From Paludibacter sp. (lineage in GTDB: Bacteria > Bacteroidota > Bacteroidia > Bacteroidales > Paludibacteraceae): a stretch of 64,000 nucleotides of DNA. The notes beneath the pieces were generated by a model. That model was given only the letters and a program-made list of their open reading frames with translations. It was not told where the DNA came from and did not search any database. Positions 5,385 through 55,543 of this stretch are shown in pieces. The DNA lies in NCBI GenBank assembly GCA_034928085.1, contig JAYFPG010000022.1:51456-115455 (forward strand), read 5' to 3'. How positions within the stretch are numbered: the first letter of the stretch is position 1; each line of letters starts with the position of its first letter. A program made the position numbers and the translations under genes.

Positions 5385-5480
5385 TTTTATTTTTATAAAA
5401 AGATTAAATAAATTTCTTGTACAACAATGGCATGAGAATCTAATGCTTAATTGTTTCAAAAAGTAAAGCGGGATGTTCAA

Positions 5481-9717: not shown

Positions 9718-9738
9718 TTTTCTTTTAATCGTGTTGTT

Positions 9739-34900: not shown

Positions 34901-35476
34901 AATTACATTGAAAGAGGACTTGCCGGATGTGTTTATTGTTTCACTTTTGTATCCTACATAAGAAATTTGTATGTTTTCCCCCTTACTTAACGAAAGTGTA
35001 AACCTTCCGTCAAAATCTGTGATTGTACCTTCTGTGGAATTTACGTCCATCACCGTTGCTCCGATGATGGGCTCTCCGGATGCATCGGTAACTACACCGC
35101 TGATTGTTTTTGAGGCAGGCTTTGCAACTTCTTTTTTCTTGGTCAGCACAATTGTATTATTGTTGTAGCTGGCTTCAAGTCCTTTCTGATCAAGCACTGT
35201 CTTTACAACTTCAACCAGCGGTTTGTTGCTGACCTGAATGGAAACATCTTTTTTTGTGTCCATTAAGATGTCTCGATAAATAAACGTGAAGTTAGTCCTG
35301 GACTCGATTTGTTTCATGAACTCCTGAATACTCACATTCCGGAGATTTAGTGTGATTGTTTGTGAGGTGTTCTGGGCGTTCATCTGGATTACCCCTCCCA
35401 ACATTGCCAACACCATAATTAGTTTTTTAAAGATACCCTTTAAATTTGATTTTTGTGGATTGTGTTTTCTCAACAT
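31919..35476 (-). CDS. susC: SusC/RagA TonB-dependent transporter with STN extension (PUL2)
   Basis: LEEVVIVGYGTQKK; LKDASASAIYGARAAYGVILVTT; barrel C-terminus. Confidence 0.96.
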   Translation of the reverse strand: MLRKHNPQKSNLKGIFKKLIMVLAMLGGVIQMNAQNTSQTITLNLRNVSIQEFMKQIESRTNFTFIYRDILMDTKKDVSIQVSNKPLVEVVKTVLDQKGLEASYNNNTIVLTKKKEVAKPASKTISGVVTDASGEPIIGATVMDVNSTEGTITDFDGRFTLSLSKGENIQISYVGYKSETINTSGKSSFNVILKEDIANLEEVVIVGYGTQKKVNLTGAVSVVSADQIQNRPSGSVVSLLQGAVPNLNVNMTSGRPGGSGTLNIRGATSINGGSPLVLIDGIEASLEHLNPNDIASVTVLKDASASAIYGARAAYGVILVTTISKDRDSDKIKVSYNGSYGIGQSTTSTDFETRGYYSVYINDLFYRTTQGVNYSRYTEADMLELWARRNDKTEDPTRPWVVTQNRAGKESYIYYANTDWYHYLYNENRPMQKHNISLSGGNDKVKFLVSGGFHAEDGIMRINTDKYKKANLRSKVTADINKYISISNNTSFYRNSYTFPGSGAVNNSFVYQNVHGLASYVPVNPDGTPVYMTIFNSAGVMDGWSALITHGKHANEDTYVNLTNIAELTIRPFKGLEIKGNFSYAFNGYTAMNRSVNIPYSMYPGELSYVTSGRGDNKLNEKFNRNEYYATNIFATYKKGIRDHNLSLLGGFNYETRSYKDIGIVGWNLLSEDLNDMGLTAIDETTGMARFEGTGGQNEYAIMGGFGRFNYDYQGKYLLEISGRNDGSSKFMRGLRYVFFPSFSAGWRMSEEKFFNPLSDIIDNLKFRVSYGSLGNQNVSGYYPYIRTVSTSTLDYVFGTDAKGKYASFSAPVASNISWEVVTTSNLGFDLSFFDSKLNFNGDFYIRDTEGMLVKGKTLPSVYGTTPPRENAADLRTKGYELVLSWNDKFILANKPFRYGATLSLGDNTAKITRFDNPNKMLNDYYEGQTWGEIWGYKTDGLFASDEEAANWSIDQTLVNQEILIAAGAEGKLRAGDIKFVDLNNDNKITQGENRVGNSGDQVVIGNSQARYRYGISANASWNGIDISVFLQGIGKQNWWPSNDAYMFWGPYNRPYATFIHKNFMKDVWTEDNPDAYFPRHRGYAASGSASNRSLRAPTDRYLQDLAYLRLKNLTVGYTLPTKLVNKVALEKLRFYFSGENLLTFSKIHSKVVDPEQASAEGEASSKANIYPFQKIFSVNIDITF

Positions 35477-35503
35477 ATAGATATTATTATGATATGATAG
35501 TTA

Positions 35504-36484
35504 TTAATTCCTGAATATTACGATTGTATCTTTGTGTCTTCTGAATTGAATGTGCTGATACTGAATTTTAAAAGCTTCTAATGCAGTCTCAATTTTTTCT
35601 TCTTTGAAAGTTCCTGATATCAGGTCGTTAGCTATATCGGGACAGTTGTTGATGATTTTTACTCCATACCATTCCTCCAAACGGGTCAGCACATCGGTAA
35701 ATTTCTCAGAGCTGAACTTCAGCCTGTTGTACATCCATGCTGTTTCGAGATCATTATCGGTATGCATAATCTGCATCATGTTGGTTTGTTTGTTGAAAAT
35801 AGCTTTTTGGTTCGGTTTCAGATAGTAGTCCTGAGATAAGTCGTTACTCCTCAGTTTTACATGACCTTCTACCAAAGAAGTTTCAATTATATCTGAATAA
35901 TCTCTTGCTTTCGCGTTAAATGAGGTGCCCAGCACTTCAACTTCCAGTCCATTCATGTTTACAATAAATGGTTTTGTCTTGTCCTCGGCGACCTTGAAAA
36001 AAGCTTCTCCGGTTAGTGTTACTTGTCGAAGTTTTTTGTCAGCCTGCGAATATTCAATTGTGCTGTTAGCATTAATCCATACCTTGGTTTGATCAGGCAA
36101 GGTAATCATGGCTTTATTGCCTCTTTCCACACTTACAGCCATGTTGCCCGGATCATCCTGCCTGTTAAGCGTGTACATCAACACAGTACCAACCACAATC
36201 AATGGGACTAATACGGCAGCAACCCGCAACAAACGGGAACGTCTGATTTGTTTTTTATCACACTCGATATAGAAGTTCAGCTTATTCCGGATGTCATCTT
36301 TTGTACTTGTATCCATGTTACCGGAAAGGATATTCTCATTCCATTCATCATGCATTGTTTCCGACAGTTCCTCATTCGAAATGTCATTCAGGTAATGCCG
36401 CATCTCCATGAATTCATCCCGTCTGATGTTGCCATAGAGAAATTTCTTATATAAGTTCTTAATATGTTTGTTCATTTTTGTCAT
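35504..36484 (-). CDS. FecR-family anti-sigma factor (PUL2)
   Basis: TLPDQTKVWINANS, LTGEAFFKV, VLGTSFN; ATG at 36484 (or 36475) preferred over the TTG at 36505. Confidence 0.92.
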   Translation of the reverse strand: MTKMNKHIKNLYKKFLYGNIRRDEFMEMRHYLNDISNEELSETMHDEWNENILSGNMDTSTKDDIRNKLNFYIECDKKQIRRSRLLRVAAVLVPLIVVGTVLMYTLNRQDDPGNMAVSVERGNKAMITLPDQTKVWINANSTIEYSQADKKLRQVTLTGEAFFKVAEDKTKPFIVNMNGLEVEVLGTSFNAKARDYSDIIETSLVEGHVKLRSNDLSQDYYLKPNQKAIFNKQTNMMQIMHTDNDLETAWMYNRLKFSSEKFTDVLTRLEEWYGVKIINNCPDIANDLISGTFKEEKIETALEAFKIQYQHIQFRRHKDTIVIFRN

Positions 36485-36520
36485 CTGTTGTGTTACACGT
36501 TTCAAATTTGTGTTGGTACC
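36481..36520 (-). promoter_or_regulatory. Putative ECF promoter GGTAC-N13-AAACGTGTAACACAACAGATGA, copy 1
   Basis: 22-bp identity plus identically spaced GGTAC with 37169-37208. Confidence 0.6.
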
Positions 36521-36529
36521 GTTTCTTTT

Positions 36530-37123
36530 TTATGCTATAAAACATAATTCGAAAACAAGCAGGTACAGAATATTGGTTTTCAACAGACCTCCTCTGATTT
36601 TTTTCAGGGCGGTGGTGAGCTGATTCTTAACGGTTTGTTCAGAAAGATTGAGGGTTTCCGAAATCTCCTCGATTGTTTTGCCTTTTTCCCGGCTTAGTTC
36701 GTAAATTTCCAATTGTCGACCGGTAAGGAGTTTTTTGCACAGCTTGAGTGTCTTTACAAAATCATCGTATAACAACTTTGTCTCGGCTTCTGTGTTTTCT
36801 TCCTGACCGGCTTCTTCTTTATAGCCGATGTAGAGTTCCATTTCTGTTTTGTTGATTTGTTTACGGAACAGGTCAATCAGCCGATGATTGGCTATTGTAA
36901 ATAAAAGTGACTGAAGCGATCCGTCAACACTCAGTGATTCCCTCATTGTCCATAAACGGAGGAATGTCTCCTGTACGATGTCTCCGGCAGTCTCCTGCGA
37001 TTTGGTGTGTGCCAGTGCAAAGCTGTAGAGTTTGTCGGCATACATGTCATAAATCGCGTTGAAGGCTTTGTGTGAGCCTCCCCGCAATTCTTTGATGTAG
37101 GATTTCAGGATGTTGTTTTCCAT
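36530..37123 (-). CDS. ECF RNA polymerase sigma-70 factor (PUL2)
   Basis: AFNAIYDMY...DIVQETFLRLW...LFTIA; LTGRQLEIYELSR...EEISETLNLSEQTVKNQL; start moved to MENNIL (37123). Confidence 0.93.
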   Translation of the reverse strand: MENNILKSYIKELRGGSHKAFNAIYDMYADKLYSFALAHTKSQETAGDIVQETFLRLWTMRESLSVDGSLQSLLFTIANHRLIDLFRKQINKTEMELYIGYKEEAGQEENTEAETKLLYDDFVKTLKLCKKLLTGRQLEIYELSREKGKTIEEISETLNLSEQTVKNQLTTALKKIRGGLLKTNILYLLVFELCFIA

Positions 37124-37168
37124 CTTATTTGTATTGATAATGAAGCGATGGCGATACACAATATCACT

Positions 37169-41746: not shown

Positions 41747-41759
41747 ACTTGTTGATATT

Positions 41760-41793
41760 AAAAAAAATCCTGCTCATTTTGTTGAGCAGGATT
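41760..41793 (-). terminator. Attenuator terminator in the pheA leader
   Basis: Minus strand AATCCTGCTCA-ACAAAA-TGAGCAGGATT-TTTTTT, perfect 11-bp stem, ending 14 nt before the pheA start. Confidence 0.85.
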
Positions 41794-41842
41794 CTATTCG
41801 TGTATCTTTTTATTATTAATAGTACATACAATTATCCTGCTC

Positions 41843-41893
41843 TCACCTTTTAAAGTAAAAGTAAAAATAAAAGTATGTAAAAAATCGTGTCAT
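41843..41893 (-). CDS. pheL: Phe/Tyr-rich leader peptide MTRFFTYFYFYFYFKR
   Basis: Manual translation ATG(41893)...TGA(41843): 6 Phe and 4 Tyr in 16 codons; antiterminator arm GAGCAGGAT (41834-41842) directly after the stop. Confidence 0.85.
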   Translation of the reverse strand: MTRFFTYFYFYFYFKR

Positions 41894-41920: not shown

Positions 41921-42092
41921 ATACTTTTTCAATAAACTGCAATTTTTTCTGAAAATATTTTTTCTATTGTGGGTTCATACGGTGAATTATGCAATTTATC
42001 TATGCCTGAAATTTCAGAAAAAAGTACTTTTGGACTCAAAACACCTCAAAAGCCCTCTGTTTAAAAGGCTTTCAGTAGATTTTATTAAAAAT

Positions 42093-42136
42093 CTAACAAA
42101 GTTTTATCAAAGTTCTAACAAAGTTCTAACAAAAAA
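42093..42136. repeat. Four 11-bp tandem direct repeats (ctaacaaagtt consensus)
   Basis: ctaacaaagtt ttatcaaagtt ctaacaaagtt ctaacaaaaaa. Confidence 0.75.
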
Positions 42137-42708: not shown

Positions 42709-44928
42709 TTACAGTTCAAGTTGGTTCTTAACTAAATGATAATAAGCGCCTTTCTTCTTTGTGAGACTTTCATGGGTTCCTGTTTCAACAATTTCCCCAT
42801 TGTCAAGCACCACGATTTGATCTGCATTTTTCACGGTGCTGAGCCTATGTGCAATTACGACGGATGTCCTGCCTTCGAAGAATCTGCCTAAGTTGTCCAT
42901 GATGATTTTCTCATTGTTCGTGTCCAATGCGTTGGTTGCTTCATCTAAAAACACGAACTCCGGATTCTTGTAAATTGCTCTGGCAATGAGGATTCTCTGC
43001 TTCTGACCCTGACTGAGCGCATGTCCTTCAGATCCAATTTTAGTATCGTATTTTGATGATAAAGTTTCGATGAAGGGTCTGATATTGGCCGTATTAACTG
43101 CGTTCAACAGCCTGTCTTTGTCTATTTCTTCGTCACCTGGTGCAATATTCCTTGCTATACTGTCGGTAAAGATGTATCCTTCCTGCATCACTACACCACA
43201 ATTTTTTCTCCATTCACGCATGTTGTAGTGTGATAAACTGTTGCTGCCCAGGAATATATGTCCCTGTTGTGGTTTGTAAAACCCCAGCAGGAGTTTCATC
43301 ATGGTAGTTTTACCACTTCCACTCATTCCCACAATGGCAGTCTGTTTCCCGGAGGGAATATGAAGGTTTATGTTTTTTAAAACGGGTTTTCCTGCTGAGG
43401 TTGTATCGTAAGCAAATGTCAGATTGTGGATTATAATGTCCTGTTTATCAGGGATGTTGTGGATCTGATCCGGATTATCTTCATCTTCATTGTCTTTGGT
43501 ATAAACCTCGCTGAGCCTTTCGATGCTAAGGCGTGCATCCTGTGACTCCCGGTAGAAGTGGATCAACTGATCAATTGGGCTATTTAGCTGGCCCAGAATG
43601 TATTGTACAGAGAGCATCATCCCCAAACTCATGTTTCCGTCAATCACAAACTTGGCAACTAAGGCAGTAATGATGATGTTTTTGGTTTGATTGATAAAAA
43701 TCGCTCCGGAATCCTGATACTGACTTAAAGCCAAACCTTTGATCCTCAGCTTGAAGAGTTTGGCCTGTATTCTTTCCCATTCCCATCTTTTCTGTTGTTC
43801 GCAGGCGTTCAGTTTGATTTCCTGCATGCCGGTAATAAGCTGAATTACATTGCTTTGATTAGCTGCTTGTTGTGCGAAGTTTTTGTGGTCGAGTGTTTCT
43901 CTTTTCTTCATAAACAGACTTACCCAAAAGAAATACAGGAGACTCCCCACTAAGAAAATCAGGAAAATTGTTACATTGTAAAACAAGAGTATTAAGGTGA
44001 ATATCACAATGTTAAACAGCCCAAACAGGATGTTCAGGGTAGAGTTTGTTAGGTAATTCTGAATGCGGGTATGGTCACCCATGCGTTGTAACAGATCACC
44101 GGTCATTTTGGTGTCGAAATAGCCCATGGGCAACCGCATCAGCTTAGCCAGAAAATCGGAAATCACCGAAATGTTGACGCGGGTTCCTATGTGCAATAGT
44201 ATCCAACCCCTGATGAATTCAACGGTTGAGGCGCTAAACACCAGAACTAACTGAGCAATCAGGACAAGATATATATAGCCTATGTTTTGTGCTGAGATTC
44301 CGAAATCTACTATAGACTGGGTGAGGAAGGGGAGTAAAAGTTGCAGCAGACTGCCAAAAAACAGTCCGAGAAACAACTGGAATATCAGTTTTTTGTAGGG
44401 TTTCAGGTAAGAAAAAAGAAATGAAAATCCTTTACTGGTATTGGTTTTGTCACTTTCTTTATTGAAAAACCCGGGAGTAGTTTCCAGCAGTAGGGCAATG
44501 CCTACATCTTCTCCGTCACTACGGGTGCTCAACCAGCAACGACAAAATTCTTCTTTGGTGTATTTCAGTTTTCCGGCTCCCGGATCTGCCACATAAATAA
44601 TATCTTTCCCGTTTTTTTCGCGGATGTCATAAACTACGACGAAATGTTGTTGGTTCCAGTGTACAATGCAGGGGAGGGGGGCTTCTTTCTTTAATTCTTC
44701 GAAGTTTACATAGACACCTACTGTACGGAAACCCAGTTTCTCAGCGGCTTCGCTGATGCCTAACAAGGAAACGCCTTCACGACTGAAGTGGGATTTTTCA
44801 CGGAGTCCTTCAAGGGAGTATTGCCTTCCATAGTGCGCTGCAATCATACGCAGGCAGGTCGGACCGCAATCCATGGCATCGTGTTGGTGGTAGAAGGGAA
44901 ATTTAGACATAGAGTTCATAATATTCAA
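42709..44928 (-). CDS. C39 peptidase-containing ABC transporter (PCAT; double-glycine peptide exporter)
   Basis: QHDAMDCGPTCL (catalytic Cys), HWNQQHFVV (His), VADP; TM domain; GMSGSGKT, LSQGQ, FLDEAT, IAHR. Confidence 0.95.
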   Translation of the reverse strand: MNIMNSMSKFPFYHQHDAMDCGPTCLRMIAAHYGRQYSLEGLREKSHFSREGVSLLGISEAAEKLGFRTVGVYVNFEELKKEAPLPCIVHWNQQHFVVVYDIREKNGKDIIYVADPGAGKLKYTKEEFCRCWLSTRSDGEDVGIALLLETTPGFFNKESDKTNTSKGFSFLFSYLKPYKKLIFQLFLGLFFGSLLQLLLPFLTQSIVDFGISAQNIGYIYLVLIAQLVLVFSASTVEFIRGWILLHIGTRVNISVISDFLAKLMRLPMGYFDTKMTGDLLQRMGDHTRIQNYLTNSTLNILFGLFNIVIFTLILLFYNVTIFLIFLVGSLLYFFWVSLFMKKRETLDHKNFAQQAANQSNVIQLITGMQEIKLNACEQQKRWEWERIQAKLFKLRIKGLALSQYQDSGAIFINQTKNIIITALVAKFVIDGNMSLGMMLSVQYILGQLNSPIDQLIHFYRESQDARLSIERLSEVYTKDNEDEDNPDQIHNIPDKQDIIIHNLTFAYDTTSAGKPVLKNINLHIPSGKQTAIVGMSGSGKTTMMKLLLGFYKPQQGHIFLGSNSLSHYNMREWRKNCGVVMQEGYIFTDSIARNIAPGDEEIDKDRLLNAVNTANIRPFIETLSSKYDTKIGSEGHALSQGQKQRILIARAIYKNPEFVFLDEATNALDTNNEKIIMDNLGRFFEGRTSVVIAHRLSTVKNADQIVVLDNGEIVETGTHESLTKKKGAYYHLVKNQLEL

Positions 44929-45032
44929 AGCGGCATAGCATAAAATCTCTTGATAATCAGTTGATTTCAGGAGGTTCTTGCAATAATGAATTATTGCTCG
45001 CTAAACCGCTTTAAAATTAGAGAATATTTTTG

Positions 45033-45143
45033 TTATACCCTAATTCTAATTCTTCTTCCGTCAGGTAATATGATATTTACATAATAACCACCTATGGTCT
45101 CATTTAATTGCTCAGGAGACATTTTTTTTAAATTTGTTTTCAT
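45033..45143 (-). CDS. Double-glycine-leader precursor peptide 3: MKTNLKKMSPEQLNETIGG-YYVNIILPDGRRIRIRV
   Basis: Manual translation; GG-leader pattern; homologous to peptides 1 and 2; immediately upstream of the PCAT. Confidence 0.85.
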   Translation of the reverse strand: MKTNLKKMSPEQLNETIGGYYVNIILPDGRRIRIRV

Positions 45144-45193
45144 CTTGTGTGTGTTTATTAGATAGATTGAAATAAAATCGTAGATTCATGAGT

Positions 45194-45304
45194 TTACACT
45201 CTAACTCTTACTACAGTACCATCAGGTAAAATGATATTTACATAATAACCACCTTTTGTCTCATTTAATTGTTCGGGAGACATATTTCTAAGATTTGTTT
45301 TCAT
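45194..45304 (-). CDS. Double-glycine-leader precursor peptide 2: MKTNLRNMSPEQLNETKGG-YYVNIILPDGTVVRVRV
   Basis: Manual translation; core identical in protein to peptide 1, with 4 synonymous codon differences. Confidence 0.87.
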   Translation of the reverse strand: MKTNLRNMSPEQLNETKGGYYVNIILPDGTVVRVRV

Positions 45305-45364
45305 TGTGTTTAATTTTTGTGTGTGTTAATGGATAAGTTTCTAATATGAAAGGGCTTTATGAGT

Positions 45365-45487
45365 TTATACCCTAACTCTTACTACAGTACCATCAGGTAA
45401 AATAATGTTTACATAATAGCCACCTTTAGAATCATTCAGTTGCTCAGTACTAAGTTTTCTGAATTTGTTTTCGTTAATTGTTTTCAT
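45365..45487 (-). CDS. Double-glycine-leader precursor peptide 1: MKTINENKFRKLSTEQLNDSKGG-YYVNIILPDGTVVRVRV
   Basis: Manual translation; LSTEQL...GG fits the LSxxELxxxxGG leader consensus. Confidence 0.87.
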   Translation of the reverse strand: MKTINENKFRKLSTEQLNDSKGGYYVNIILPDGTVVRVRV

Positions 45488-45537
45488 TGTTTTTATTATT
45501 AATTGGTTTGACATTCATATTGTTTTGTTTGACAATG

Positions 45538-45649
45538 CAATGTTAATACATTTATCTTTAATAAAAATGCTCAAAGTTTAACCAACTCTTCACTAAAGTT
45601 CTAAATAAAAGTCATTTGTTAGAAGTTTGATAAAAAAATTTTATCTTTG
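45538..45649. promoter_or_regulatory. Divergent promoter region between peptide operon and two-component system
   Basis: Imperfect -7 TAACATTG (minus, 45538-45545); aaagtt boxes 22 bp apart (45573, 45595); ttgttagaagtttgataaaa (45616-45635); -7 TATCTTTG (plus, 45642-45649). Confidence 0.55.
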
Positions 45650-45693
45650 TTGCGAATTATAATTCAGATTGTATTTATATTCATAACAATATC

Positions 45694-47040
45694 ATGTCAA
45701 CAAAAAACATCTCATATATTGCAATCATATCAATCATATTTATTCTGCTAACACAGAGTTATTTGGTTTATGATTACTTTCAAACAGTTCGTTTTGCGTT
45801 GATAAGGGAGTCTGATGCTATTTTGAAAGAAGCATTTAGAGGCGATTTGAATCAACGAAACCTGAAATATGTTAGTTTTACACAAATAAAAGAGGGCTCA
45901 GAATCAACGGTTGTCAATACAGAAAAAAATGAAATTGATTTTGACATGCGTGAAAATTCAATGGATAAAGAAAGTATATTGAACAAGTTTGACATTGTGA
46001 TGCATGTTTTTATTAGTAAAGTAATACCGCTTGATTTACATAGAATTGATAGCATAACGGGTCAGATTCTTCGTTCACGAAATATCAATTCAGATTATTC
46101 AATCCAACTGATAAACCCTAAAACCCAAGAAGTATTAGCAAGTTCAAAAGATTATGCCAGCAGTTCTTTTCTTGTGATACCTTCACAATTATATCCGCTT
46201 GATTTTGAGGAAAAGGAAGCATTACAGTTGGTTCTGATTAATCCTTTTTCAGAGATTATGAAGCGAATGGCGCTCATGTTACTGGGTTCGATTGTGTTTT
46301 CAGTAATTTCGTTGCTGGCTTTCAGGTTCCTGATTATAACATTAGCCAAACAAAAGAAGTTGGTGAAGTTTAAAAATGAGTTTTTAAGTAATATTGCCCA
46401 CGAATTAAAACGTCCTGTTTCGAGCCTGATTGTGAATTTAGATTGCCTAAAAGAGCCCGAAATGTTCGAAAATGTTGGTATGCGCGATATGATGTTGAAT
46501 AATTCGGTGAACTCCCTGACAGAGCTGAATGGAACCATCAGTATGATTGTAGGTTTGGCAAAGGTGGAAGAAGGCTTGCTGGTGCTGAACAAGCTGCCTG
46601 TTAACCTCGTTAAACTCATAGATGATCTGAAGACGAGGTTCATCAGTTCTCTTACCAAGAAAATAACAATAACTACTCATTACGAAGCGGATGAGATTAT
46701 CGTGACCGGAGATGGGTTGATGTTGACACAATGTTTTGCCAATTTAATTGATAATTCAATCAAATATTCAAAACAACAGGTTAGTGTTGATATTAGTGTG
46801 TCGGTGCACGCGAATGCAGTAGAATTGAATTTTAAAGATAATGGTATTGGTATACCAGCAGAAAAGATAAACAATATTTTTGAAAAGTACTCGCGGGTTG
46901 ATAACAATGTTAAAGTCAATGGTTTCGGAATCGGACTCAATTATGTGAAAACAATTATTGAGAAACATGGAGGAAGCATTGGGGTAACCAGTGAATTGGG
47001 TGTGGGTTCTAACTTTAAAATAATTTTGCCAAATAAATAA
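45694..47040 (+). CDS. Membrane sensor histidine kinase (2 TM, periplasmic sensor, HisKA-HATPase)
   Basis: NIAHELKRP (H box), NLIDNSIKYS (N), KDNGIGI (G1), GFGIGL (G2). Confidence 0.94.
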   Translation: MSTKNISYIAIISIIFILLTQSYLVYDYFQTVRFALIRESDAILKEAFRGDLNQRNLKYVSFTQIKEGSESTVVNTEKNEIDFDMRENSMDKESILNKFDIVMHVFISKVIPLDLHRIDSITGQILRSRNINSDYSIQLINPKTQEVLASSKDYASSSFLVIPSQLYPLDFEEKEALQLVLINPFSEIMKRMALMLLGSIVFSVISLLAFRFLIITLAKQKKLVKFKNEFLSNIAHELKRPVSSLIVNLDCLKEPEMFENVGMRDMMLNNSVNSLTELNGTISMIVGLAKVEEGLLVLNKLPVNLVKLIDDLKTRFISSLTKKITITTHYEADEIIVTGDGLMLTQCFANLIDNSIKYSKQQVSVDISVSVHANAVELNFKDNGIGIPAEKINNIFEKYSRVDNNVKVNGFGIGLNYVKTIIEKHGGSIGVTSELGVGSNFKIILPNK

Positions 47041-47047
47041 GACACAA

Positions 47048-47755
47048 ATGAAAAAGATCTTGGTTGTAGAAGATGATCTAAATCTGGGAACCGCTTTAGT
47101 CGGATTCTTAGAAATGCAAAAGTATGAGGTTTACTATGTAAGCAATGGGGATGAAGCCATTGCTGAATTTCAGCAGTTTTCTCCCGATCTGGTTACACTG
47201 GACGTAATGCTGAATTGTAGTGTTGATGGTTTTGAAATTGCGCGTAAAATCAGAAAATTCAGTGATGTGCCCATTATTTTCACGACCTCACGTGATGGTA
47301 ATGAGGATTATGAAATCGGATTCGGTATTGAGAACAGTGATTACGTCCGGAAGCCATACCGCTTGGTTGAGTTAATGCTCCGGATAAATAAAATGGTAGA
47401 AGCCGAAATGACTTCTTCTTCGGCTGCCAATGATAACCAGTTTAGGATAGGCAGGTTCAAATTCTTCCCTGATGAGCAGTCACTTAAGTTCGATAAGGGT
47501 GATATTCATTTGAATCACTTAGATTCCGTGGTGTTGGCTTTACTATGCCGGAACAAGGGTAACTTTATGTCTCGTGAAGAAATTATCAAGATTGTCTGGC
47601 AGGTTGAGGAGACCAGTTCCAAGGAAGCCGCACTGTATAATTCTATTTCCAGACTGAAGAAATATCTTTACAATGACGATCAGGTTGTAATTGAGAATAA
47701 GATTCGTTTGGGTATCCGTCTCCGGGATTATGAAGAAGGAGAAAAGCGGGAATAA
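47048..47755 (+). CDS. OmpR/PhoB-family response regulator
   Basis: ILVVEDD, LDVML (phospho-Asp), DYVRKP; winged-helix C-terminus (SREEIIKIVW...SISRLKKYL...IRLGIRL). Confidence 0.92.
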   Translation: MKKILVVEDDLNLGTALVGFLEMQKYEVYYVSNGDEAIAEFQQFSPDLVTLDVMLNCSVDGFEIARKIRKFSDVPIIFTTSRDGNEDYEIGFGIENSDYVRKPYRLVELMLRINKMVEAEMTSSSAANDNQFRIGRFKFFPDEQSLKFDKGDIHLNHLDSVVLALLCRNKGNFMSREEIIKIVWQVEETSSKEAALYNSISRLKKYLYNDDQVVIENKIRLGIRLRDYEEGEKRE

Positions 47756-49172: not shown

Positions 49173-49793
49173 TTATTTGATAAGTTTTAATCCTGTGGTT
49201 GCCGATTCATCATTGGGTCTGAGTGTCATAGCGTGATTGAAAAGAATGCCGGCCTCCGCCTGTTTACCAAGATTCAGCTTTGTCCACGCCAGCATAATGA
49301 CTGAATCGTAATCAAGTGGATACAGATTTACAACTTTCTCAAACAGTTTTACCGCGTTCTGGTAGTCTTTTTTGTTGTAGTAAATGACACCGAGCCAGTA
49401 GTTCGCAACCGTGTTTTGTGGGTCAATTTTCAGAATCTGATGATATTGTTGCTTGACTTTTTCCCATTGTTCAGTTGCGCTATAGGGTTTCACAATACCG
49501 AATCGTGCTTCAATTGAATAGGGCTTTAGTCTGATGGCATTGAGGTAGAATTTTTCAGCTTCAGCATGTTGTCTGGATAAATAATGAAGCCAACCCATGC
49601 GGATATTAGCAAAATAATCTTCAGATTTATAGACTTTTTTTAATTCTGAGATGGCTTGTGCATATTTACCTGTCTTTTCAGCTTCATAGCTTTTGTAAAA
49701 GGCCTGTTGCCAAACTGTCTGATTCTGTGCTCCTGTAGTCATTGCTATAAAAAGCAGGCACGCGGTAACTGTTTTTCGAATTATATTTTCCAT
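49173..49793 (-). CDS. Exported tetratricopeptide-repeat protein
   Basis: Signal peptide; TPR-like helices (AEKFYLNAIRLKP, ILKIDPQNTVANYWLG, FEKVVNLYP). Confidence 0.8.
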   Translation of the reverse strand: MENIIRKTVTACLLFIAMTTGAQNQTVWQQAFYKSYEAEKTGKYAQAISELKKVYKSEDYFANIRMGWLHYLSRQHAEAEKFYLNAIRLKPYSIEARFGIVKPYSATEQWEKVKQQYHQILKIDPQNTVANYWLGVIYYNKKDYQNAVKLFEKVVNLYPLDYDSVIMLAWTKLNLGKQAEAGILFNHAMTLRPNDESATTGLKLIK

Positions 49794-50950
49794 ATCAAAC
49801 CTCCTGTAATTGAATGTTGGTTGTAGAATAAATTATCCGTGAATATTTTTTTTGTATCGTAGTTGTAATTCAAATAAATCGTCAGGGGCTTGCACAGATA
49901 CCAAAATCCTGAAATGCCCGTCCTGAACGTGGTCGGATCAAGCGAGTTGTAAAAGTATAAGCCATTATTGTCAATGAATTGATTGAGATTGCCCACGTTT
50001 ACATAAGCTTCTGTCCACATTCTATTGAAGAGCATAATTCCGGCCGTTTGTTTAAAAACATTTCGTCCATAACTGTAATCCAAACCTGTTTCGACAATTC
50101 TGTAGTAAGAGCTTGTCAGGTTTATGTTGTTACTTCCGGCAAAATTAACACCCAGATGTACCCCCAGTTGTTTAGAGTCGAGCCATTCATTTTTAAAAGA
50201 TGCGCCCGACAACGCCAGATCGAAACGGTTCAGTTGTTGTGTTATTTTCCCGTAAAAGATATTTCCGGGATAGTTGAAAGTGTCGGCGCCATAGACCACC
50301 TTTGAACCAACATAGTGATAGCCGATGCTGATGTTGGTTTTTGCGGCCGGATTCCATCCCAATAAAACAAAATACTCATTCTGACGGGTTTGTGTTGTAT
50401 CCGTACTTTGGTTGAAATTGGAGAAACTCTGATATAAGTTTAATTTGTATCCAAGCTGACTGTTCAGTCCGAGACGTTTGTAATGACCCTGATGGGTGGA
50501 AGGATTATCAGGCATTTTATAGCTATACTCCAGATCAACTGCATCGGTTAAACGGTATTGTTTTTCCCTGACTTCTGTCAGCGTAATTTCAGAAAGCTGC
50601 GATGCCTGGAATCTGGCAAAGGCTGTTCTGCCCGTATATACGCCATTGTAATAAAGATATAACCGGGATATTTCATCATCATCATAATCTAATGCTTTCT
50701 CGTAATGTCGCATACTTTTGTAATACTGTTTTTTTACAAAATATGCATATCCCACCCGTTGCTGAAGCCATTTAAAGTCAATATTATTCTTTTTAGCCAG
50801 CTCAGCTGTTTCAATCAGTCCATCCCAATCACCGGCGTTGAACTGAACGTAGCTCAGACTGTCAATAGAGACAATCGAAACCTGATTGTTTGCATAACTA
50901 AGTAAACTGTAAAAAAACAGCAAAAGCACAATTATCCTGACTGATTTCAT
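49781..50950 (-). CDS. Exported protein with N-terminal TPR and probable outer-membrane beta-barrel
   Basis: Signal peptide; TPR-like GYAYFVKKQYYKSMRHYEKAL; alternating amphipathic strands ending ...ITGGLIWKI; overlaps the TPR gene. Confidence 0.6.
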   Translation of the reverse strand: MKSVRIIVLLLFFYSLLSYANNQVSIVSIDSLSYVQFNAGDWDGLIETAELAKKNNIDFKWLQQRVGYAYFVKKQYYKSMRHYEKALDYDDDEISRLYLYYNGVYTGRTAFARFQASQLSEITLTEVREKQYRLTDAVDLEYSYKMPDNPSTHQGHYKRLGLNSQLGYKLNLYQSFSNFNQSTDTTQTRQNEYFVLLGWNPAAKTNISIGYHYVGSKVVYGADTFNYPGNIFYGKITQQLNRFDLALSGASFKNEWLDSKQLGVHLGVNFAGSNNINLTSSYYRIVETGLDYSYGRNVFKQTAGIMLFNRMWTEAYVNVGNLNQFIDNNGLYFYNSLDPTTFRTGISGFWYLCKPLTIYLNYNYDTKKIFTDNLFYNQHSITGGLIWKI

Positions 50951-50956
50951 CTGTTC

Positions 50957-53149
50957 TTATATGAGTCTTTTTGCCTGAATTACTTTCTTGCCCGAAATAT
51001 ACTCAAAAGAATCGAGACCCTGTTGGTTTATTTTGATTTTACTTTTAGCCAGAATTGATTTTCTTCCAAAGGTTGTAATGGTAATCTCAGTTCTAATCTC
51101 AATTTCAGAGGTATCAAGCATATGATCAATTTTTTCAACTTTCTCACAATAACCCGCCTTCAGGAAATTAAAAAATGGTGCAGTGAAGTCGTTTAGACTG
51201 CTTATCAGCTTCTTATTCTCCAGTAAATGAATCGGGATATTATCATTTATCGGTATATTGCTGTCTGATAATAGTATTTTATAAGCAGATAAGAAAAAAT
51301 AATAAAGCAACGATTTGCGGTTTCCGTAGAACGCTGTAAAATAGAACATCATGTTGTCGCAGGTATAGTAAGCAACTGCATCTGTTTCCCGGCTGTGGAG
51401 GTATTTGTAGTTCAATGCATCTGTATATGCATCCCAATGTTCTGTCTTTTCGTTACCCTTCTCATCCCGGGTATATATTTTCAGACCGGTATCTGGTAAT
51501 AGGTTGAACGCGTTAAACAGGAAGGGTTGCTGACGCAGGTTGGCAACTAAGGTTTTTTCCACTGGTATTGAGAATTGTTCCAGACGTTTATGCTGTAAGT
51601 TGATAAAATAAGAGATGGGGTAATCAACCGTTTTTGAACCGATGACCGGATAATGTTGCAGTTGAAAATGCAGGTGTGGATAAGGTGAGCGTCCTGAGTT
51701 TCCACATTGCGCCACTGCATCTCCACATTTTACGAAATCCCCCTTTTTTACCTTAACTGAACCCTTTTTAAGATGTGAGAGTTGTGAATATAAACCGGTT
51801 ATGTGTTGAATGACAAGGCTGTTCCCCCAGTTATTAGTCGTGTTGACTTCACCAATAGCATTGTCTTCGATATGATCGACAATATCCACGATGAACCCAT
51901 CAGCTGGAGCCGTAACCGGTTTTCCGTAGCAATAATAATCCTCACATGTCAGACCGGCTGATTTGTAGGATTTTCCTTCTTCATTCAGGATCATGAAATC
52001 AAATGCTTTGCCCCATTCATCTTTATGGGTAAATGCGCCATCATGTCCCTGAGTTACTGTCCATTCTCCCCAGAATGGCAGTTGCACCGGATGGTACAAA
52101 AACCGGTTCAGCCGTTCTTTGTTGTTCAAATATGCATATAAATTCGTTTCAGGCGAATAATGCTGAATGGGTGTGAGAATCAATTTCTTCTGATTGTTCC
52201 GCTGTTGCAGGAAATGTACAAACAGGATTGTGATGATGGAGTAGGGCAGCGAAAAAACCGGAAGTTGTATCAAACTAAAGAGTTTTGTGAAAAAAACCAG
52301 CACGATGGATGTCAGCGGAACCAACAGGATGGTCCAGAAATAGGATGATTTTGATGGTATGACAAAGAATCCACCCATGGCAATGGCAACCATCATGAAA
52401 TTCGCCCCAATATTATAATAGGTAATGCTGGCAGCTTCCGATCCGGAGAATTGAGCAAAGATATAGGCTGATATAAAGCCGATTACTGATAATGAAAAAA
52501 ATATGCGAGAACTGATGAGTAAGGCAATGGCAATGACAATGCCGGTTATCAGGTTGTTCTGGAAGAAAATAGAACTCAGTGAACGCAAATAAATTTCGAG
52601 TAAGCTGTTTAATTCCCAGGATTCGATGTATTGGTAAATAGAGAGCAGTGAGTTTCCGCCTACTGAATACAATTCGTTAATCCAGAATATGTTACGTTGG
52701 GTCAGACCAAGATTCTCATACAGGGAGGATGGAAGCACGACAAACCAGAAAGCCAAAATAAACGGGATACTCAGATAGGGTAGACCATATTTAAACAACC
52801 ACCCACCCAATGCAACCGATAATATCAGCGTAAGCACCGACGAAAGCGCGAGCAGGGTAAAAAAAACGATACCCGGGTCGAAGAAAGTCCCCAGGCCGAT
52901 ACCGGTTATCAATGCATTAAAGCTTAATACGCCATTGCGTAGCTGAACCTTATCAAAACCTAAGGAGTTTGCCAGCAAAACAGCTATAAGTACCGCAATC
53001 AATCCACTCAATCCTGCATAGAAATTGAGGAAAGTAGCCACCATGACTGCTATTGCCATGAAACGGTTATTCAGAAAAAAGATGATGGAATAACTGTTTA
53101 AGATGGCCGGGAGAATTGTTTCACGGGTGTTTTTGAATGTATCTTTCAA
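50957..53149 (-). CDS. Urea-transporter-like membrane domain fused to an M23 peptidase-like domain
   Basis: Hydrophobic N-half (NSYSIIFF, SSIFFQNN..TG, LPVFSLP); soluble HKDEWGKAFDF, GKPVTAPADG, WGNSLVIQH, YSQLSHL, GNSGRS..PHLHFQLQ; TTG start. Confidence 0.78.
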   Translation of the reverse strand: MKDTFKNTRETILPAILNSYSIIFFLNNRFMAIAVMVATFLNFYAGLSGLIAVLIAVLLANSLGFDKVQLRNGVLSFNALITGIGLGTFFDPGIVFFTLLALSSVLTLILSVALGGWLFKYGLPYLSIPFILAFWFVVLPSSLYENLGLTQRNIFWINELYSVGGNSLLSIYQYIESWELNSLLEIYLRSLSSIFFQNNLITGIVIAIALLISSRIFFSLSVIGFISAYIFAQFSGSEAASITYYNIGANFMMVAIAMGGFFVIPSKSSYFWTILLVPLTSIVLVFFTKLFSLIQLPVFSLPYSIITILFVHFLQQRNNQKKLILTPIQHYSPETNLYAYLNNKERLNRFLYHPVQLPFWGEWTVTQGHDGAFTHKDEWGKAFDFMILNEEGKSYKSAGLTCEDYYCYGKPVTAPADGFIVDIVDHIEDNAIGEVNTTNNWGNSLVIQHITGLYSQLSHLKKGSVKVKKGDFVKCGDAVAQCGNSGRSPYPHLHFQLQHYPVIGSKTVDYPISYFINLQHKRLEQFSIPVEKTLVANLRQQPFLFNAFNLLPDTGLKIYTRDEKGNEKTEHWDAYTDALNYKYLHSRETDAVAYYTCDNMMFYFTAFYGNRKSLLYYFFLSAYKILLSDSNIPINDNIPIHLLENKKLISSLNDFTAPFFNFLKAGYCEKVEKIDHMLDTSEIEIRTEITITTFGRKSILAKSKIKINQQGLDSFEYISGKKVIQAKRLI

Positions 53150-53167
53150 GTTTTAATTTTTTTAGAT

Positions 53168-53204
53168 CTGTCAGGTTCTTTTGTTATTTAAACCTGACAG
53201 GTTT
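53168..53204. repeat. REP-like palindrome (AAACCTGACAGGTTT type)
   Basis: ctgtcaggtt-N13-aacctgacag stem; aaacctg-a-caggttt self-palindrome at 53190-53204. Confidence 0.55.
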
Positions 53205-53220
53205 GTAAGCTCGTTTGTAT

Positions 53221-54567
53221 TTATTTCAAATGTCCCGGAACTTCTTCCAGAGAATCAATGTACTCCATGGTTTCTGCTTTTCTTATGATATGTGTATTAT
53301 TATCAGCGTCAATCAGCACAATATTTGGTCTTAGTGTGATGAACTGCATCCACTGGGTCATGTTGTAGGCACCGACCTGGTGTACAACCAGTTGATTCCC
53401 TTTTTCGAGTAAGGGCATCACGATACTTTCGCGTACGATGTCGATATTCATACACAAAGGACCGTATAACACCATCTCTTCCGTTTGCTGGCCCATGGGT
53501 TGAGCCGGACTGACCTTGTGCTCATACCAAAGTGATGTAAACAAAGTGTTGAGGCCGAAGTCAAGAATGGTGGCCCGGCGTCCGTCGGATAAACGTTTGG
53601 TTGCCAATACAGTTCCAAGCAGGTAACCCGCATCGTCAATCAGGGCGCGACCACTTTCCAGAATCAACAAAGGCAGTTCGTCCTGACTGAATCCATATCC
53701 TAAAATGACATCGGTTATAGCATCCGCAAACTGGTCCAGCGAAGGTACCGTGTCTGTCCCCGGAAGATAAGCACCTTTCAGGGTGTTGGTTGAAGGGAAA
53801 CCGCCTCCCAGATCAAGGTATTGCAACATTTTGCCATATCGTTCTTTTACACTCCAGGCCAACTCGCAAAGATTTCTGGCAGCTGTTGCGTAGGCATTGG
53901 GTGATAACATGAAAGTGCCGATGTGGCAATGCAGTCCCACCAAATCAAGGTTCGGGGAGTTGAGAATCCGGGTAAGTGCATTCCAGGCCTGACCATTTTC
54001 AAAATTAAAACCAAACCGGTCCCATTTAGGGTAAATTCCGGTATCCATATTGATGCGAATGGCAACTCGGGGCCTGAGTTTATGCTCATCACTCAAACGA
54101 AGCAGCGTATAAAGTTCATCGTAATGGTCGATGTGAATGAGTGAGTTGTTTTTAGCTGCTACTAACAGTTGCTCATCACTTTTATCCGGGCCGTTGAAAA
54201 TAATTTGGTTACCCGGTACCCCGTTCTGCAGGGCTTTGTCGTATTCAAATCCGGATACGACTTCCGCCCATGAGCCTTCCTGATGAAATATCTGACAAAC
54301 TGCGTCTAAATAGTTAGTTTTATACGACCAGGCAAATTGAACTTTAGGGTACCGGGTTTTAAAAATTCTGGAGGCATTCTGAAAGTTTCTTCTGATTTGT
54401 TTCTCTGAAATAACAAATAACGGAGAACCATATTCTTTTAATAGTCCCTTTACTGAAACACTTTCGATGTGTGTAACCGGTTCATTCTCTGTTTTAGTGC
54501 CGAATTTATTCATCAACCCTGTGTTCATTTTTCGCAAGGTCGGTCTTTCGTATCTTTTCTTTTCCAT
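53221..54567 (-). CDS. Fold-type III PLP decarboxylase (LysA/Orn-DAP-Arg family) with N-terminal extension
   Basis: YGSPLFV, WSYKTN (PLP Lys), IIFNGP.K, GLHCHIG, LDLGGGF, ESGR, GPLC, VGAY. Confidence 0.85.
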   Translation of the reverse strand: MEKKRYERPTLRKMNTGLMNKFGTKTENEPVTHIESVSVKGLLKEYGSPLFVISEKQIRRNFQNASRIFKTRYPKVQFAWSYKTNYLDAVCQIFHQEGSWAEVVSGFEYDKALQNGVPGNQIIFNGPDKSDEQLLVAAKNNSLIHIDHYDELYTLLRLSDEHKLRPRVAIRINMDTGIYPKWDRFGFNFENGQAWNALTRILNSPNLDLVGLHCHIGTFMLSPNAYATAARNLCELAWSVKERYGKMLQYLDLGGGFPSTNTLKGAYLPGTDTVPSLDQFADAITDVILGYGFSQDELPLLILESGRALIDDAGYLLGTVLATKRLSDGRRATILDFGLNTLFTSLWYEHKVSPAQPMGQQTEEMVLYGPLCMNIDIVRESIVMPLLEKGNQLVVHQVGAYNMTQWMQFITLRPNIVLIDADNNTHIIRKAETMEYIDSLEEVPGHLK

Positions 54568-54612
54568 GACAAATGCCTCCAGAATTTTAAAGTTATCTCT
54601 TTATTGTTGACA

Positions 54613-55419
54613 TCATTCTACAGCAGGCAATTCTAATTCGCCTAAATTAACATCAACCCCACCGATTACATCGAGATCTTCTATCAGGGTATTGGTTATT
54701 CCTGTTTGCAGATTCTCGCTCATAATATCATATGTTCCACTATAAAGTCCGTGCAATACAAATAAATTGTTTAGCAAGGTATCAGAGACAGTTGCGATTG
54801 TGTCTCCTGCTGTATTGGTGGTGAAAATTCTTGTGGCTACATCAGCAGGTAATAATGTTCCGTATATTTTGGAAGAATTTGCTGTGATGTATGCCCTAAT
54901 CACTGGTTTAAGCAGGTATTCACCGTTGCCCTTGAAGACAATTGAGCGTGATGCATCAAAATCAATGACGACTTTATAACCACTTGTGACTTCAGCATTT
55001 GATTGTACATTCAGCTTTAATCCCGACTGTTGTGCACTTGGAGTCTGTATTGGCAGTATAGAACTGTCACTTAACATAATTGTGTTATTGTCACCTAATA
55101 TAAGTCTCACCTGATGAATCTTCATTCCTGTTTCGAGTTCAATATTAGATAATAATGTGTCTTTGCCGTTAGAGAAATCTAATAAATTTATCACAGCCGG
55201 ACTGATAGGGAGATCCACCCAGGATCCTTCACCTTCTTCTTCGGCATTAACAGAATACCTGATGGCCTGTACATCTACATTAACGGCCAGAATGCCTTGG
55301 TCGGCAGGTGCGTCGGTAAGATAAAAACCCACTGTTTGTTTGTCAGTTGTATTACATGCAACGAATAATACAGCTATAAGTGATGCGAATACTAATTTTG
55401 TTGTTTTCATTGTTTTCAT
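54613..55419 (-). CDS. DUF4382-like lipoprotein
   Basis: Lipobox VAC; LTDAP, INLLDFSNG, RLILG.NN, TPSAQQSGLKL, DFDASRSIV..G...LKPVIR. Confidence 0.75.
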   Translation of the reverse strand: MKTMKTTKLVFASLIAVLFVACNTTDKQTVGFYLTDAPADQGILAVNVDVQAIRYSVNAEEEGEGSWVDLPISPAVINLLDFSNGKDTLLSNIELETGMKIHQVRLILGDNNTIMLSDSSILPIQTPSAQQSGLKLNVQSNAEVTSGYKVVIDFDASRSIVFKGNGEYLLKPVIRAYITANSSKIYGTLLPADVATRIFTTNTAGDTIATVSDTLLNNLFVLHGLYSGTYDIMSENLQTGITNTLIEDLDVIGGVDVNLGELELPAVE

Positions 55420-55543
55420 TTTTTTAGTTAAACAATTAATAAAGTAATTTTTTAGTTTTGGTTTACGTTCAGCTGAAAGTAAAATCTGGTTGTTTTTGTT
55501 AGTTAACTATCTTTTTATGTACTTTTCTATAATTATAACTCTC

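Follow-up and report, generated by a model that had tools for sequence, protein, structure and literature searches.

Ribosomal peptide signalling through membrane kinases is textbook knowledge in Gram-positive bacteria; for Bacteroidota, a phylum whose cell-to-cell communication is poorly understood, it is to our knowledge essentially undocumented. The systems closest in function to the one described here are ComC/ComAB/ComDE and BlpC/BlpAB/BlpHR of streptococci and PlnA/PlnBCD of Lactobacillus (PMC7595303; PMC5295010). We analysed a stretch of 64,000 nucleotides (the window) from a contig of Paludibacter sp., Paludibacter being, by taxonomy look-up, a genus of Paludibacteraceae in the Bacteroidales. 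The subject is a module in which three tandem genes for peptides with double-glycine (GG) leaders are followed by a peptidase-containing ABC transporter (PCAT) and a reduced membrane-fusion protein (MFP), with a histidine kinase and a response regulator encoded divergently. We put the probability that this module is an autoinducing peptide with its kinase and regulator, occurring as pherotypes, at roughly 0.55. A fuller claim we hold more tentatively, at slightly less than an even chance: that this is the first peptide-pheromone quorum sensing with discrete pherotypes in Bacteroidota, in which a PCAT-matured, unmodified beta-hairpin 17-mer is read by the periplasmic domain of a HisKA kinase, a ~1.2-kb signal/sensor cassette is exchanged between strains, and the module serves as a portable switch for bacteriocin clusters and clusters of RiPPs (peptides made by ribosomes and modified after translation).

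The locus shares with ComCDE, BlpCHR and PlnABCD an unmodified peptide of ~17 residues with a GG leader and PCAT processing and export (here predicted), kinase and regulator genes beside the peptide gene, matched allelic types of peptide and sensor, and, in related loci, a position beside bacteriocin genes. It differs in its diderm Bacteroidales host, in a HisKA kinase with a folded periplasmic domain, in a regulator of OmpR rather than LytTR type, in a peptide with a predicted beta-hairpin fold in place of an amphipathic helix, encoded in two to four tandem copies, and in the presence of an MFP, reduced in this genus. By analogy, the module may work like these three-component pheromone systems without being of their protein lineage: peptide and kinase genes are linked in 10/10 lineages, and peptide and sensor show matched variation, to which physical linkage contributes. 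In staphylococci, the agr hypervariable region comprises the 3' end of agrB, agrD and the sensor part of agrC. The population-genetic architecture of our locus appears, by the same kind of comparison, to resemble agr most closely, with a sharply bounded variable block that takes in the signal gene and, of the kinase gene, no more than the sensor half, with conserved flanks and a discordant phylogeny. Unlike agr, it has no AgrB-type enzyme and no thiolactone (the cores lack Cys), and its variable block does not include the exporter.

The peptide core and the kinase sensor vary together while the rest of the module is conserved. In the close relatives L001, L005, L008, L031 and L053 (related loci carry L numbers), the regulator, PCAT, MFP and flanking aminotransferase are 95-99.6% identical to the window in amino acids (regulator 97-99.6%) and the kinase 81-97%; in L057 the corresponding values are 82-96% (regulator 92.8%) and 77%. 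The kinase differences cluster in residues 41-178, approximately the sensor domain (45814-46227 of the window). Along the DNA, identity between the window and L008 is 58-87% inside the variable block and 90-100% outside it, with sharp edges; the shared promoter region within the block is less diverged (83-89%). Against L001, identity is lower still over the peptide genes (45101-45400), where copy number differs. The block starts just past the stop codon of gene 3, leaving the PCAT outside, and ends with the sensor domain at about 46100-46250.

Nei-Gojobori estimates of non-synonymous (dN) and synonymous (dS) divergence, taken region by region, form a mosaic. Between the window and L008, which have different peptides, the sensor has dN 0.177 and dS 0.76, as against dN 0.002 and dS 0.13 for the cytoplasmic part of the kinase and dS 0.14 for the regulator. 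Between the window and L005, which have the same peptides, the sensor has dN 0.006 and dS 0.15, and dS is 0.44 in the cytoplasmic kinase and 0.52 in the regulator. In L001, L005 and L053 the regulators and the cytoplasmic kinase parts are identical, and yet there are three peptide/sensor types. Across seven close genomes, core distance was correlated with sensor distance (Mantel r = 0.93, P = 0.001; partial r = 0.95, controlling for the regulator), and not significantly with regulator distance (r = 0.33, P = 0.24) or cytoplasmic kinase distance (r = 0.40, P = 0.14). Such a pattern is also seen in the agr hypervariable region of staphylococci and in the comC/comD and blpC/blpH pherotypes of streptococci.

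The second line of evidence is gene context, compared in ten lineages (the window/L001/L005/L008 type, L067, L069, L071, L073, L075, L076, L078, L079 and L080). The kinase gene is adjacent to and divergent from the peptide gene in all ten, and the regulator is visible wherever the contig reaches far enough. The kinases are orthologous, including the N-terminal sensor region, with 41-64% identity over 225 residues among nine lineages (L079, a 148-aa fragment at a contig end, was left out). A PCAT is adjacent in eight of the ten, in keeping with the preliminary description of this DNA, for which an absence of homologues beside PCATs would have counted against its proposal. It is thus the kinase, and not the exporter, that invariably accompanies the hairpin peptide. 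The window type has two to four peptide copies, a PCAT and the 171-aa MFP; L078 has one copy (PCAT, 165-aa MFP), L069 two (PCAT, 214-aa MFP), L071 three (PCAT, 435-aa MFP), and L075 and L079 one each (PCAT, MFPs of 436 and 435 aa). The single copy in L073 is accompanied by a C39/VKOR/thioredoxin fusion, a 65-aa Cys-rich GG peptide, a PCAT and a 432-aa MFP, and that in L076 by an 88-aa Cys-rich GG peptide, after which the contig soon ends. L067 has one copy beside a graspetide-like cluster and no PCAT within 8 kb, and L080 one copy among unrelated genes, with no PCAT on the contig. A 739-aa gene upstream of the regulator in L067 has a length that fits a PCAT; it gave no Pfam match, and the locus was counted as lacking one.

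In L067, L073 and L076 the single hairpin-peptide gene sits between the two-component system and a separate toxin or RiPP cargo. By analogy with induction-factor genes in Gram-positive bacteriocin loci, whose position is known from reviews (PMC7595303; PMC5295010) and general knowledge, this arrangement is that of an induction factor and not of a toxin. The cargo in L067 (5846-8303, the same in L068) consists of a 58-aa precursor with a Thr/Ser/Glu-rich tail (ending ...TGTSNSVTWSVYTETESTVESESEN), a 343-aa protein with weak MvdD/RimK ATP-grasp matches and a Cys-rich 347-aa protein. The Cys-rich GG-leader peptides downstream of the hairpin peptide in L073 (3509-5443, where the fusion protein is 537 aa) and L076 (3464-3730) are probably disulfide-bonded bacteriocins under control of the same module. 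In L080, two ThsB-like TIR-domain genes, a TPR-S gene and a DUF6261 gene (3655-5907) follow the kinase/hairpin-peptide pair and may form a defence-type island.

The preliminary description left the choice between bacteriocin and pheromone undecided, and the divergent kinase and regulator, the most informative part of the locus, went unused there. The kinase gene begins 206 bp upstream of peptide gene 1. An AlphaFold2 model of kinase residues 1-226 (predicted local distance difference test, pLDDT, 76) places residues 41-178 between two transmembrane helices and predicts a disordered loop, two helices and four beta-strands for them; the alignment was shallow (eight partial relatives from a word-indexed search) and confidence in the model is moderate. 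The pair is not of the HPK10 polytopic/LytTR class.

The peptide genes themselves are under selection. Three small open reading frames (ORFs) with GG leaders had been proposed on the minus strand, and their positions and translations were confirmed. They had also been called unannotated, which holds for the ORF track and not for public gene callers, which label these peptides 'hypothetical protein'; the Joint Genome Institute (JGI) labels a few family members 'bacteriocin-like protein'. For gene 1 an alternative 49-aa ORF extends to 45514, and we prefer the MKT start because it is common to paralogues and orthologues. Our count agreed with the earlier one in finding that cores 1 and 2 are identical in protein and separated by four synonymous and no non-synonymous changes (12.7 synonymous and 38.3 non-synonymous sites); the chance of all four being synonymous is ~0.004. 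As had also been noted, core 3 keeps YYVNIILPDG through three further synonymous changes relative to core 2 (ATT>ATA, GAT>GAC, GGT>GGA) and then has a more basic second strand, with a net charge of ~+2.8 against ~+0.8 for cores 1 and 2. A more cationic last copy occurs in L005, L008 and L051 as well. Paralogous core pairs elsewhere differ by synonymous/non-synonymous counts of 4/0 (L022), 2/0 (L002) and 1/0 (L008); the pair in L069 scored 4/1 though identical in protein, and the single non-synonymous count is probably a codon-path artefact. This synonymous-only divergence of identical cores in several genomes indicates that the peptide genes are under purifying selection, so that the selection on the mature peptide claimed from the window alone recurs in the paralogues of other genomes. 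All three cores lack Cys, as the preliminary description stated, and the computed monoisotopic masses of the unmodified 17-mers are 1975.13 and 2115.24 Da.

The leaders are 19-23 aa long and end in GG. Position -7 is L, -12 is L or M, -15 is F or L, and -4 is mostly T or S and not hydrophobic. They have the features of PCAT-type leaders (15-30 residues, a GG end and hydrophobic residues at -7, -12 and -15). Array copy number ranges from two to four among the otherwise near-identical contigs L008-L011, and in L010 (3252-3482, a metagenome contig) one array peptide gene is broken by a run of N, so the tandem array is unstable or hard to assemble.

The array is transcribed in situ. One study supplied both DNA runs containing the locus and four small metatranscriptomes from groundwater (each with 16-31 Mb of assembled contigs); window DNA was found in groundwater and wastewater metagenomes. 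Eleven contigs map to the window, and 6/11 fall on the 450-bp array, the only site in the window matched in all four runs, so that transcription, the lack of which would have told against the earlier proposal, was seen in 4/4. The array contigs are 100% identical to the window and jointly cover 45099-45479, including gene 1, and gene 2 is covered by RNA contigs in every run. No contig in the four metatranscriptomes covers the PCAT, kinase or regulator. Their concentration on the array points to a short transcript of very high abundance and away from carried-over DNA.

A homologue search, suggested in the preliminary description, showed that the peptides form a family. A word-indexed search with peptide 1 gave 10 protein clusters; once 1.84 billion representatives had been searched with a profile, and a second word search run from an 18-member alignment, there were ~80, with members in Paludibacter and related Bacteroidales. 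The family leader is close to MKTINENNFRKLSxEQLNETKGG, and the cores, of 17-21 residues, share the scaffold YYVxIxLP[D/N]GxxVRVxV (in a looser form, [YF][YFW][VI]x[IVL]x x P[DN]G x x x x [VI]x[V]). In 68 distinct 17-mers anchored at the [D/N]G turn, the scaffold positions are Y1, Y2, V/I3, I/L/V5, T/I6, P8, D/N9, G10 (invariant), R/K12, R/K14, V/I15 and V17, and positions 4, 7, 11, 13 and 16 vary most. Many cores have no acidic residue, for example YYVIITLPNGQKVRVRV. When 185,579 species, represented by one genome each, were scanned for a degenerate pattern, 55 loci were returned, with true members only in Paludibacter and unclassified Bacteroidales metagenome-assembled genomes. About 45 of the 55 were chance matches inside long unrelated ORFs and were discarded after translation; many of these share GGYY[IV]W..LPDG and are proteins that we provisionally take to be pyridoxal-phosphate-dependent aminotransferases of MocR type or similar.

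Among NCBIfam and Pfam models, only leaders were matched, all below threshold, and no curated family covers the core, in keeping with the earlier remark that it was not recognised from any described bacteriocin or pheromone. The sub-threshold leader matches were to TIGR04149 and TIGR01847 (9/18 members each), ComC (7/18) and the BlpC and EntF induction-factor models (one or two members); the best E-values were 0.003-0.008, one member reached 15.7 bits against the TIGR04149 cut-off of 25 bits, and no cut-off was reached for TIGR01847, PF03047 or TIGR04149.

A DG or NG pair at a turn is a classical type I' hairpin signature. The AlphaFold2 model of the precursor (10-sequence alignment) has a leader helix at residues 14-19 and a hairpin with strands at 25-29 and 35-39, at moderate confidence (core pLDDT 79-84, whole model 68.5). 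The model thus agrees with the hairpin around the LPDG turn proposed earlier. The accompanying description of an unmodified amphipathic hairpin stands as to the hairpin and is too simple as to 'amphipathic': in our register reading of the model, each face would pair a hydrophobic side of one strand with a polar or cationic side of the other.

Candidate regulatory DNA lies upstream of the array. In an alignment of the region before the first peptide gene in nine lineages (A4), a block of ~35 bp is conserved, reading TTAGAATCTTGTGAGA...TTAGTAGAACCTTGTGAGA in the distant lineages, and the motif TAnnATTG lies ~27 nt beyond the box block. OmpR/PhoB-type regulators bind direct repeats in 11-bp phase, the spacing of the candidate boxes (Table 1). 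By comparison with the Bacteroides consensus TAnnTTTG, on which we lean for this assignment, TAnnATTG is likely the Bacteroidota -7 promoter element of the peptide operon. The 10-mer TTAGAACTTT occurs three times in the window against 0.3 expected, once in the promoter block and twice in a 3' array of tandem units that shares the promoter-box motif and lies between the MFP stop codon and a terminator-like hairpin. The 3' array pattern had no match in 50 shuffles and is kept after the MFP gene, whatever follows, in L001 (position 11207), L005 (11015), L008 (9375), L040 (3579), L057 (222), L069 (11168) and L071 (12288). Control of the neighbouring pheA operon by the 3' boxes was considered and is unlikely, as the array also follows the MFP gene where no pheA lies downstream (L069, L071).

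On the export side, the PCAT has a C39 peptidase domain (PF03412) at residues 10-132 with the DCG catalytic-Cys motif. Orthologues are called as 733 aa, and the true start in the window is likely the ATG at 44910, judged from the sequence. The MFP is unusual. In a family scan the 171-aa protein matched just the C-terminal part of HlyD-type MFPs; against the 435-aa MFP of L071, its residues 2-61 align with 5-64 (57% identity) and its residues 58-171 with 322-435 (49% identity). This two-ended alignment indicates an in-frame internal deletion of ~255 residues (~65-321 in full-length numbering). To judge from HlyD family architecture, the deletion removed the lipoyl and alpha-helical hairpin regions. 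The alpha-helical hairpin of HlyD-type MFPs contacts the outer-membrane channel. The dN/dS of the shortened gene is 0.11-0.13, as expected for a maintained gene and not for a remnant. Shortened MFPs are also encoded in L069 (214 aa, 10467-11111) and L078 (165 aa, 9357-9854); distant relatives keep full-length forms of 432-436 aa. Because the MFP lacks the channel-reaching part, these data suggest periplasmic delivery of the peptide in this genus, or its exit from the cell by some other path.

Table 1. Positions of the module's genes and candidate control elements in the 64,000-nucleotide window.
Feature	Position	Strand	Description
Four tandem 11-bp units (3' array)	42087-42129	minus	TTAGAACTTTG twice, ATAAAACTTTG, TTAGATTTTTA; directly past the MFP stop codon
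Mini membrane-fusion protein (MFP), 171 aa	42177-42692	minus	N-terminal tail, transmembrane segment, C-terminal beta-barrel part
PCAT	42709-44928	minus	C39 peptidase, ABC transmembrane and ATPase parts; PF03412 (3.9e-35), PF00664, PF00005
Hypervariable 'specificity' block	45030-46250		Peptide genes, shared intergenic region, 5' third of the kinase gene
Peptide gene 3	45033-45143	minus	19-aa GG leader MKTNLKKMSPEQLNETIGG, variant core YYVNIILPDGRRIRIRV
Peptide gene 2	45194-45304	minus	19-aa GG leader MKTNLRNMSPEQLNETKGG, core YYVNIILPDGTVVRVRV
Peptide gene 1	45365-45487	minus	23-aa GG leader MKTINENKFRKLSTEQLNDSKGG, 17-aa core YYVNIILPDGTVVRVRV
Candidate -7 promoter element	45538-45545	minus	TAACATTG (TAnnATTG), invariant in A4
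Candidate response-regulator boxes	45572-45604	minus	TTAGAACTTTA GTGAAGAGTTG GTTAAACTTTG, 11-bp phase, upstream of gene 1
Histidine kinase	45694-47040	plus	HisKA and HATPase_c (Pfam); two transmembrane helices flanking an extracytoplasmic sensor
OmpR-family response regulator	47048-47755	plus	Receiver and winged-helix Trans_reg_C (Pfam)

From these observations we infer a model in which the peptide, an unmodified ~2-kDa beta-hairpin of 17 residues, would be the cognate autoinducer of the divergent two-component system. Its first step, transcription of the array at a high level, is observed in situ. By what is known of the family, the C39 domain of the downstream PCAT would cut after GG and the ABC part would export the 17-mer, which, given the reduced MFP, would be released into the periplasm or cross the outer membrane by another route. 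Strict co-occurrence and co-variation suggest that the peptide would then bind the extracytoplasmic sensor of the HisKA kinase; after phosphotransfer, the OmpR-type regulator would bind the conserved 11-bp repeats upstream of the operon and close a positive feedback loop of autoinduction. In related lineages, to judge from their gene contexts, the regulator would also drive the adjacent bacteriocin or RiPP genes. Core and sensor would form a recombining cassette, giving several specificity types within otherwise near-identical genomes.

Several points weigh against this model. The peptide genes and the sensor-coding region are only ~200 bp apart, and some of the Mantel correlation would arise from linkage alone. 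Hypervariability of the sensor could have a different cause, such as its being a phage or toxin target, and the sensor's dN/dS of 0.13-0.23, though above that of the flanks (0.01-0.05), is below 1, a caveat on the sensor divergence. Foldseek with the sensor model returned nothing significant (matches to PDC-type sensors had E-values of at least 0.03), its upper ranks mixing the sensor domains of CzcS, CusS and WalK with dynein and ribosomal chains, and we claim no fold assignment. The RNA contigs carry no strand information, and their depth measures abundance poorly. For a pheromone, two to four tandem copies with a more cationic variant are out of the ordinary; such an arrangement is more typical among effector peptides. 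A peptide of 2 kDa is too large for general porins, and cell-to-cell signalling between diderms needs an uptake route. Finally, the kinase and regulator classes differ from those of Gram-positive peptide-sensing pairs.

A rival reading is that the peptides are mainly antibacterial effectors, namely bacteriocins or microcins in the form of small, cationic, unmodified hairpins that the PCAT exports, with the kinase and regulator only controlling production (maybe by nisin-type autoinduction, with the bacteriocin as the sensed signal) or tolerance. We regard this as unlikely, though it is the alternative that fares best. Multiple gene copies including the +2.8 variant, the very high transcript abundance and the JGI label on some members are all consistent with it; the combination of GG leader, PCAT and MFP is common to class II bacteriocins and microcins, and fast diversification of the core is typical of toxins too. 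Against it, we found no immunity-like gene in or beside the operon, and the variable block holds the kinase sensor and no candidate immunity determinant. A maintained MFP without the part needed to reach the outer-membrane channel also speaks against it, as do the loci in which a single hairpin peptide stands beside separate toxin-like or RiPP cargo (L067, L073, L076) or retains its kinase with no PCAT nearby (L067, L080). A dual role as signal and toxin is conceivable.

The class II microcins and bacteroidetocins, also among the nearest known systems, are likewise GG-leader peptides of Gram-negative bacteria exported by a PCAT with an MFP; however, their mature peptides are much longer and bacteroidetocins carry a disulfide (PMC12219008; PMC6671954). 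The present locus has none of the long peptide, immunity gene and full-length MFP that mark that class: its core has 17 residues and no Cys, no immunity gene is recognisable and the MFP is internally deleted. The terms 'histidine kinase', 'two-component' and 'response regulator' do not occur in the bacteroidetocin paper.

The shortened MFPs also bear on whether the peptide acts in the producer's own envelope and not as a diffusible signal between cells. Released to the periplasm by way of the mini-MFP, it would be an autocrine feedback signal setting a bistable state, or a self-assembling or outer-membrane-associated structural hairpin. Purifying selection on MFPs that have lost their interior (171 aa here, 165-214 aa in L078 and L069), a periplasmic kinase sensor, very high gene dosage and transcript level, and strands that alternate hydrophobic and basic residues would all suit such a role. 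Yet distant lineages with the same peptide family retain MFPs of 432-436 aa, and discrete peptide/sensor types are more easily explained if peptides meet other cells. We consider an envelope role quite unlikely, more so than an effector role.

It is very improbable that the small ORFs are precursors of a modified RiPP, of the TIGR04149-type radical S-adenosylmethionine (radical-SAM) class or a graspetide, with enzymes encoded elsewhere. The GG leader style and tandem multi-copy organisation are shared with the Bacteroidota precursors of TIGR04149, TIGR04139 and PF14406, and leaders of 9/18 members resemble TIGR04149 weakly (best E 0.003, below the cut-off). The scores nevertheless stay under the cut-offs, no maturase is adjacent, and, compared also with graspetides, the cores have no conserved cross-linkable residues. 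In Pfam scans of the called neighbours on both sides we found no radical-SAM/SPASM, YcaO, lanthionine, cyclase or immunity-like genes, upholding the earlier remark that no modifying enzyme or obvious immunity gene is adjacent; a radical-SAM/SPASM maturase and a core Cys, both expected of the TIGR04149-type class, are thus missing there. A graspetide is suggested by an ATP-grasp gene at 55544-56587 and by the graspetide-like cluster beside the distant member in L067. Graspetides are expected to have an ATP-grasp ligase gene next door and conserved Thr/Ser/Lys and Asp/Glu partners in the core. However, the window's ATP-grasp gene, the nearest to the array, is ~10 kb away in a separate operon and was unseen beside the module in the L075 and L078 sequence read, and with many cores free of acidic residues, ester or amide cross-links are no feature of the family. 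An OmpR-type regulator has been linked to Bacteroidetes graspetide loci, and kinase/regulator pairs occur near some Bacteroidales RiPP clusters (PMC8939145; PMC10352776); the portions of these papers available to us do not describe this peptide family or the peptide/sensor cassette. That the reading frames are chance ORFs or a non-coding conserved element, which has small size as its one point in favour, is refuted as far as sequence evidence reaches by ~80 homologous protein clusters with conserved frame and stop and by the synonymous-only divergence of paralogous cores, and an RNA-element reading of the array is unsupported, Rfam at gathering thresholds having given no match (and no tRNA being found) over the whole window.

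The genes beyond the module are of housekeeping type. On the regulator side they encode an aminotransferase, a TPR protein, a urea-transporter/M23 fusion, an ornithine decarboxylase and an ATP-grasp protein. The minus-strand run at 49173-56587 holds the ATP-grasp gene (ATPgrasp_Ter type), a DUF4382 gene, the ornithine/arginine decarboxylase, the fusion of a urea-transporter-like part with an M23 peptidase (730 aa), a 389-aa protein without a Pfam match and the TPR protein. The run is syntenic with the module in several lineages and was not seen beside it in others. We considered the cluster of ATP-grasp, ornithine decarboxylase and urea-transporter/M23 genes as part of the system and rejected it as a feature of the family, as it was not seen beside the module in the sequence read of L075 and L078.

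On the MFP side lies an operon for pheA, an aminotransferase and a DAHP synthase-chorismate mutase. Upstream of pheA (prephenate dehydratase), at 41752-41893 on the minus strand, is a classical leader-peptide attenuator, in which a 16-codon ORF (MTRFFTYFYFYFYFKR and a stop codon; 41843-41893) with six Phe and four Tyr is followed by GAGCAGGAT / ATCCTGCUC / GAGCAGGAT and a U8 run; the terminator hairpin has a folding energy of -25.4 kcal/mol (z = -5.2). Further away, 31919-37159 on the minus strand encodes an ECF sigma factor, a FecR-type anti-sigma factor and a SusC-like TonB-dependent receptor with an STN domain, a standard trans-envelope signalling unit of Bacteroidota.

In the full-text literature we found no description of this peptide family, or of a pheromone module of GG peptide, kinase and regulator, in Bacteroidota. 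We take the locus to be a familiar signalling logic assembled from other components, in a phylum and an envelope type from which it had not been described. Should the peptides be toxins instead, they would constitute an unusually small, unmodified hairpin bacteriocin family. If the signalling model is true, it raises the questions of how a 2-kDa peptide reaches a periplasmic sensor across the outer membrane and why one genus has cut down its MFP. If the peptide is the ligand of the kinase, the module would be a compact and testable system, with synthesisable ligands of 17 residues, apparently unmodified, several natural specificity types, a small sensor domain and defined candidate DNA boxes, and it would offer orthogonal peptide/sensor pairs for engineering Bacteroidales.

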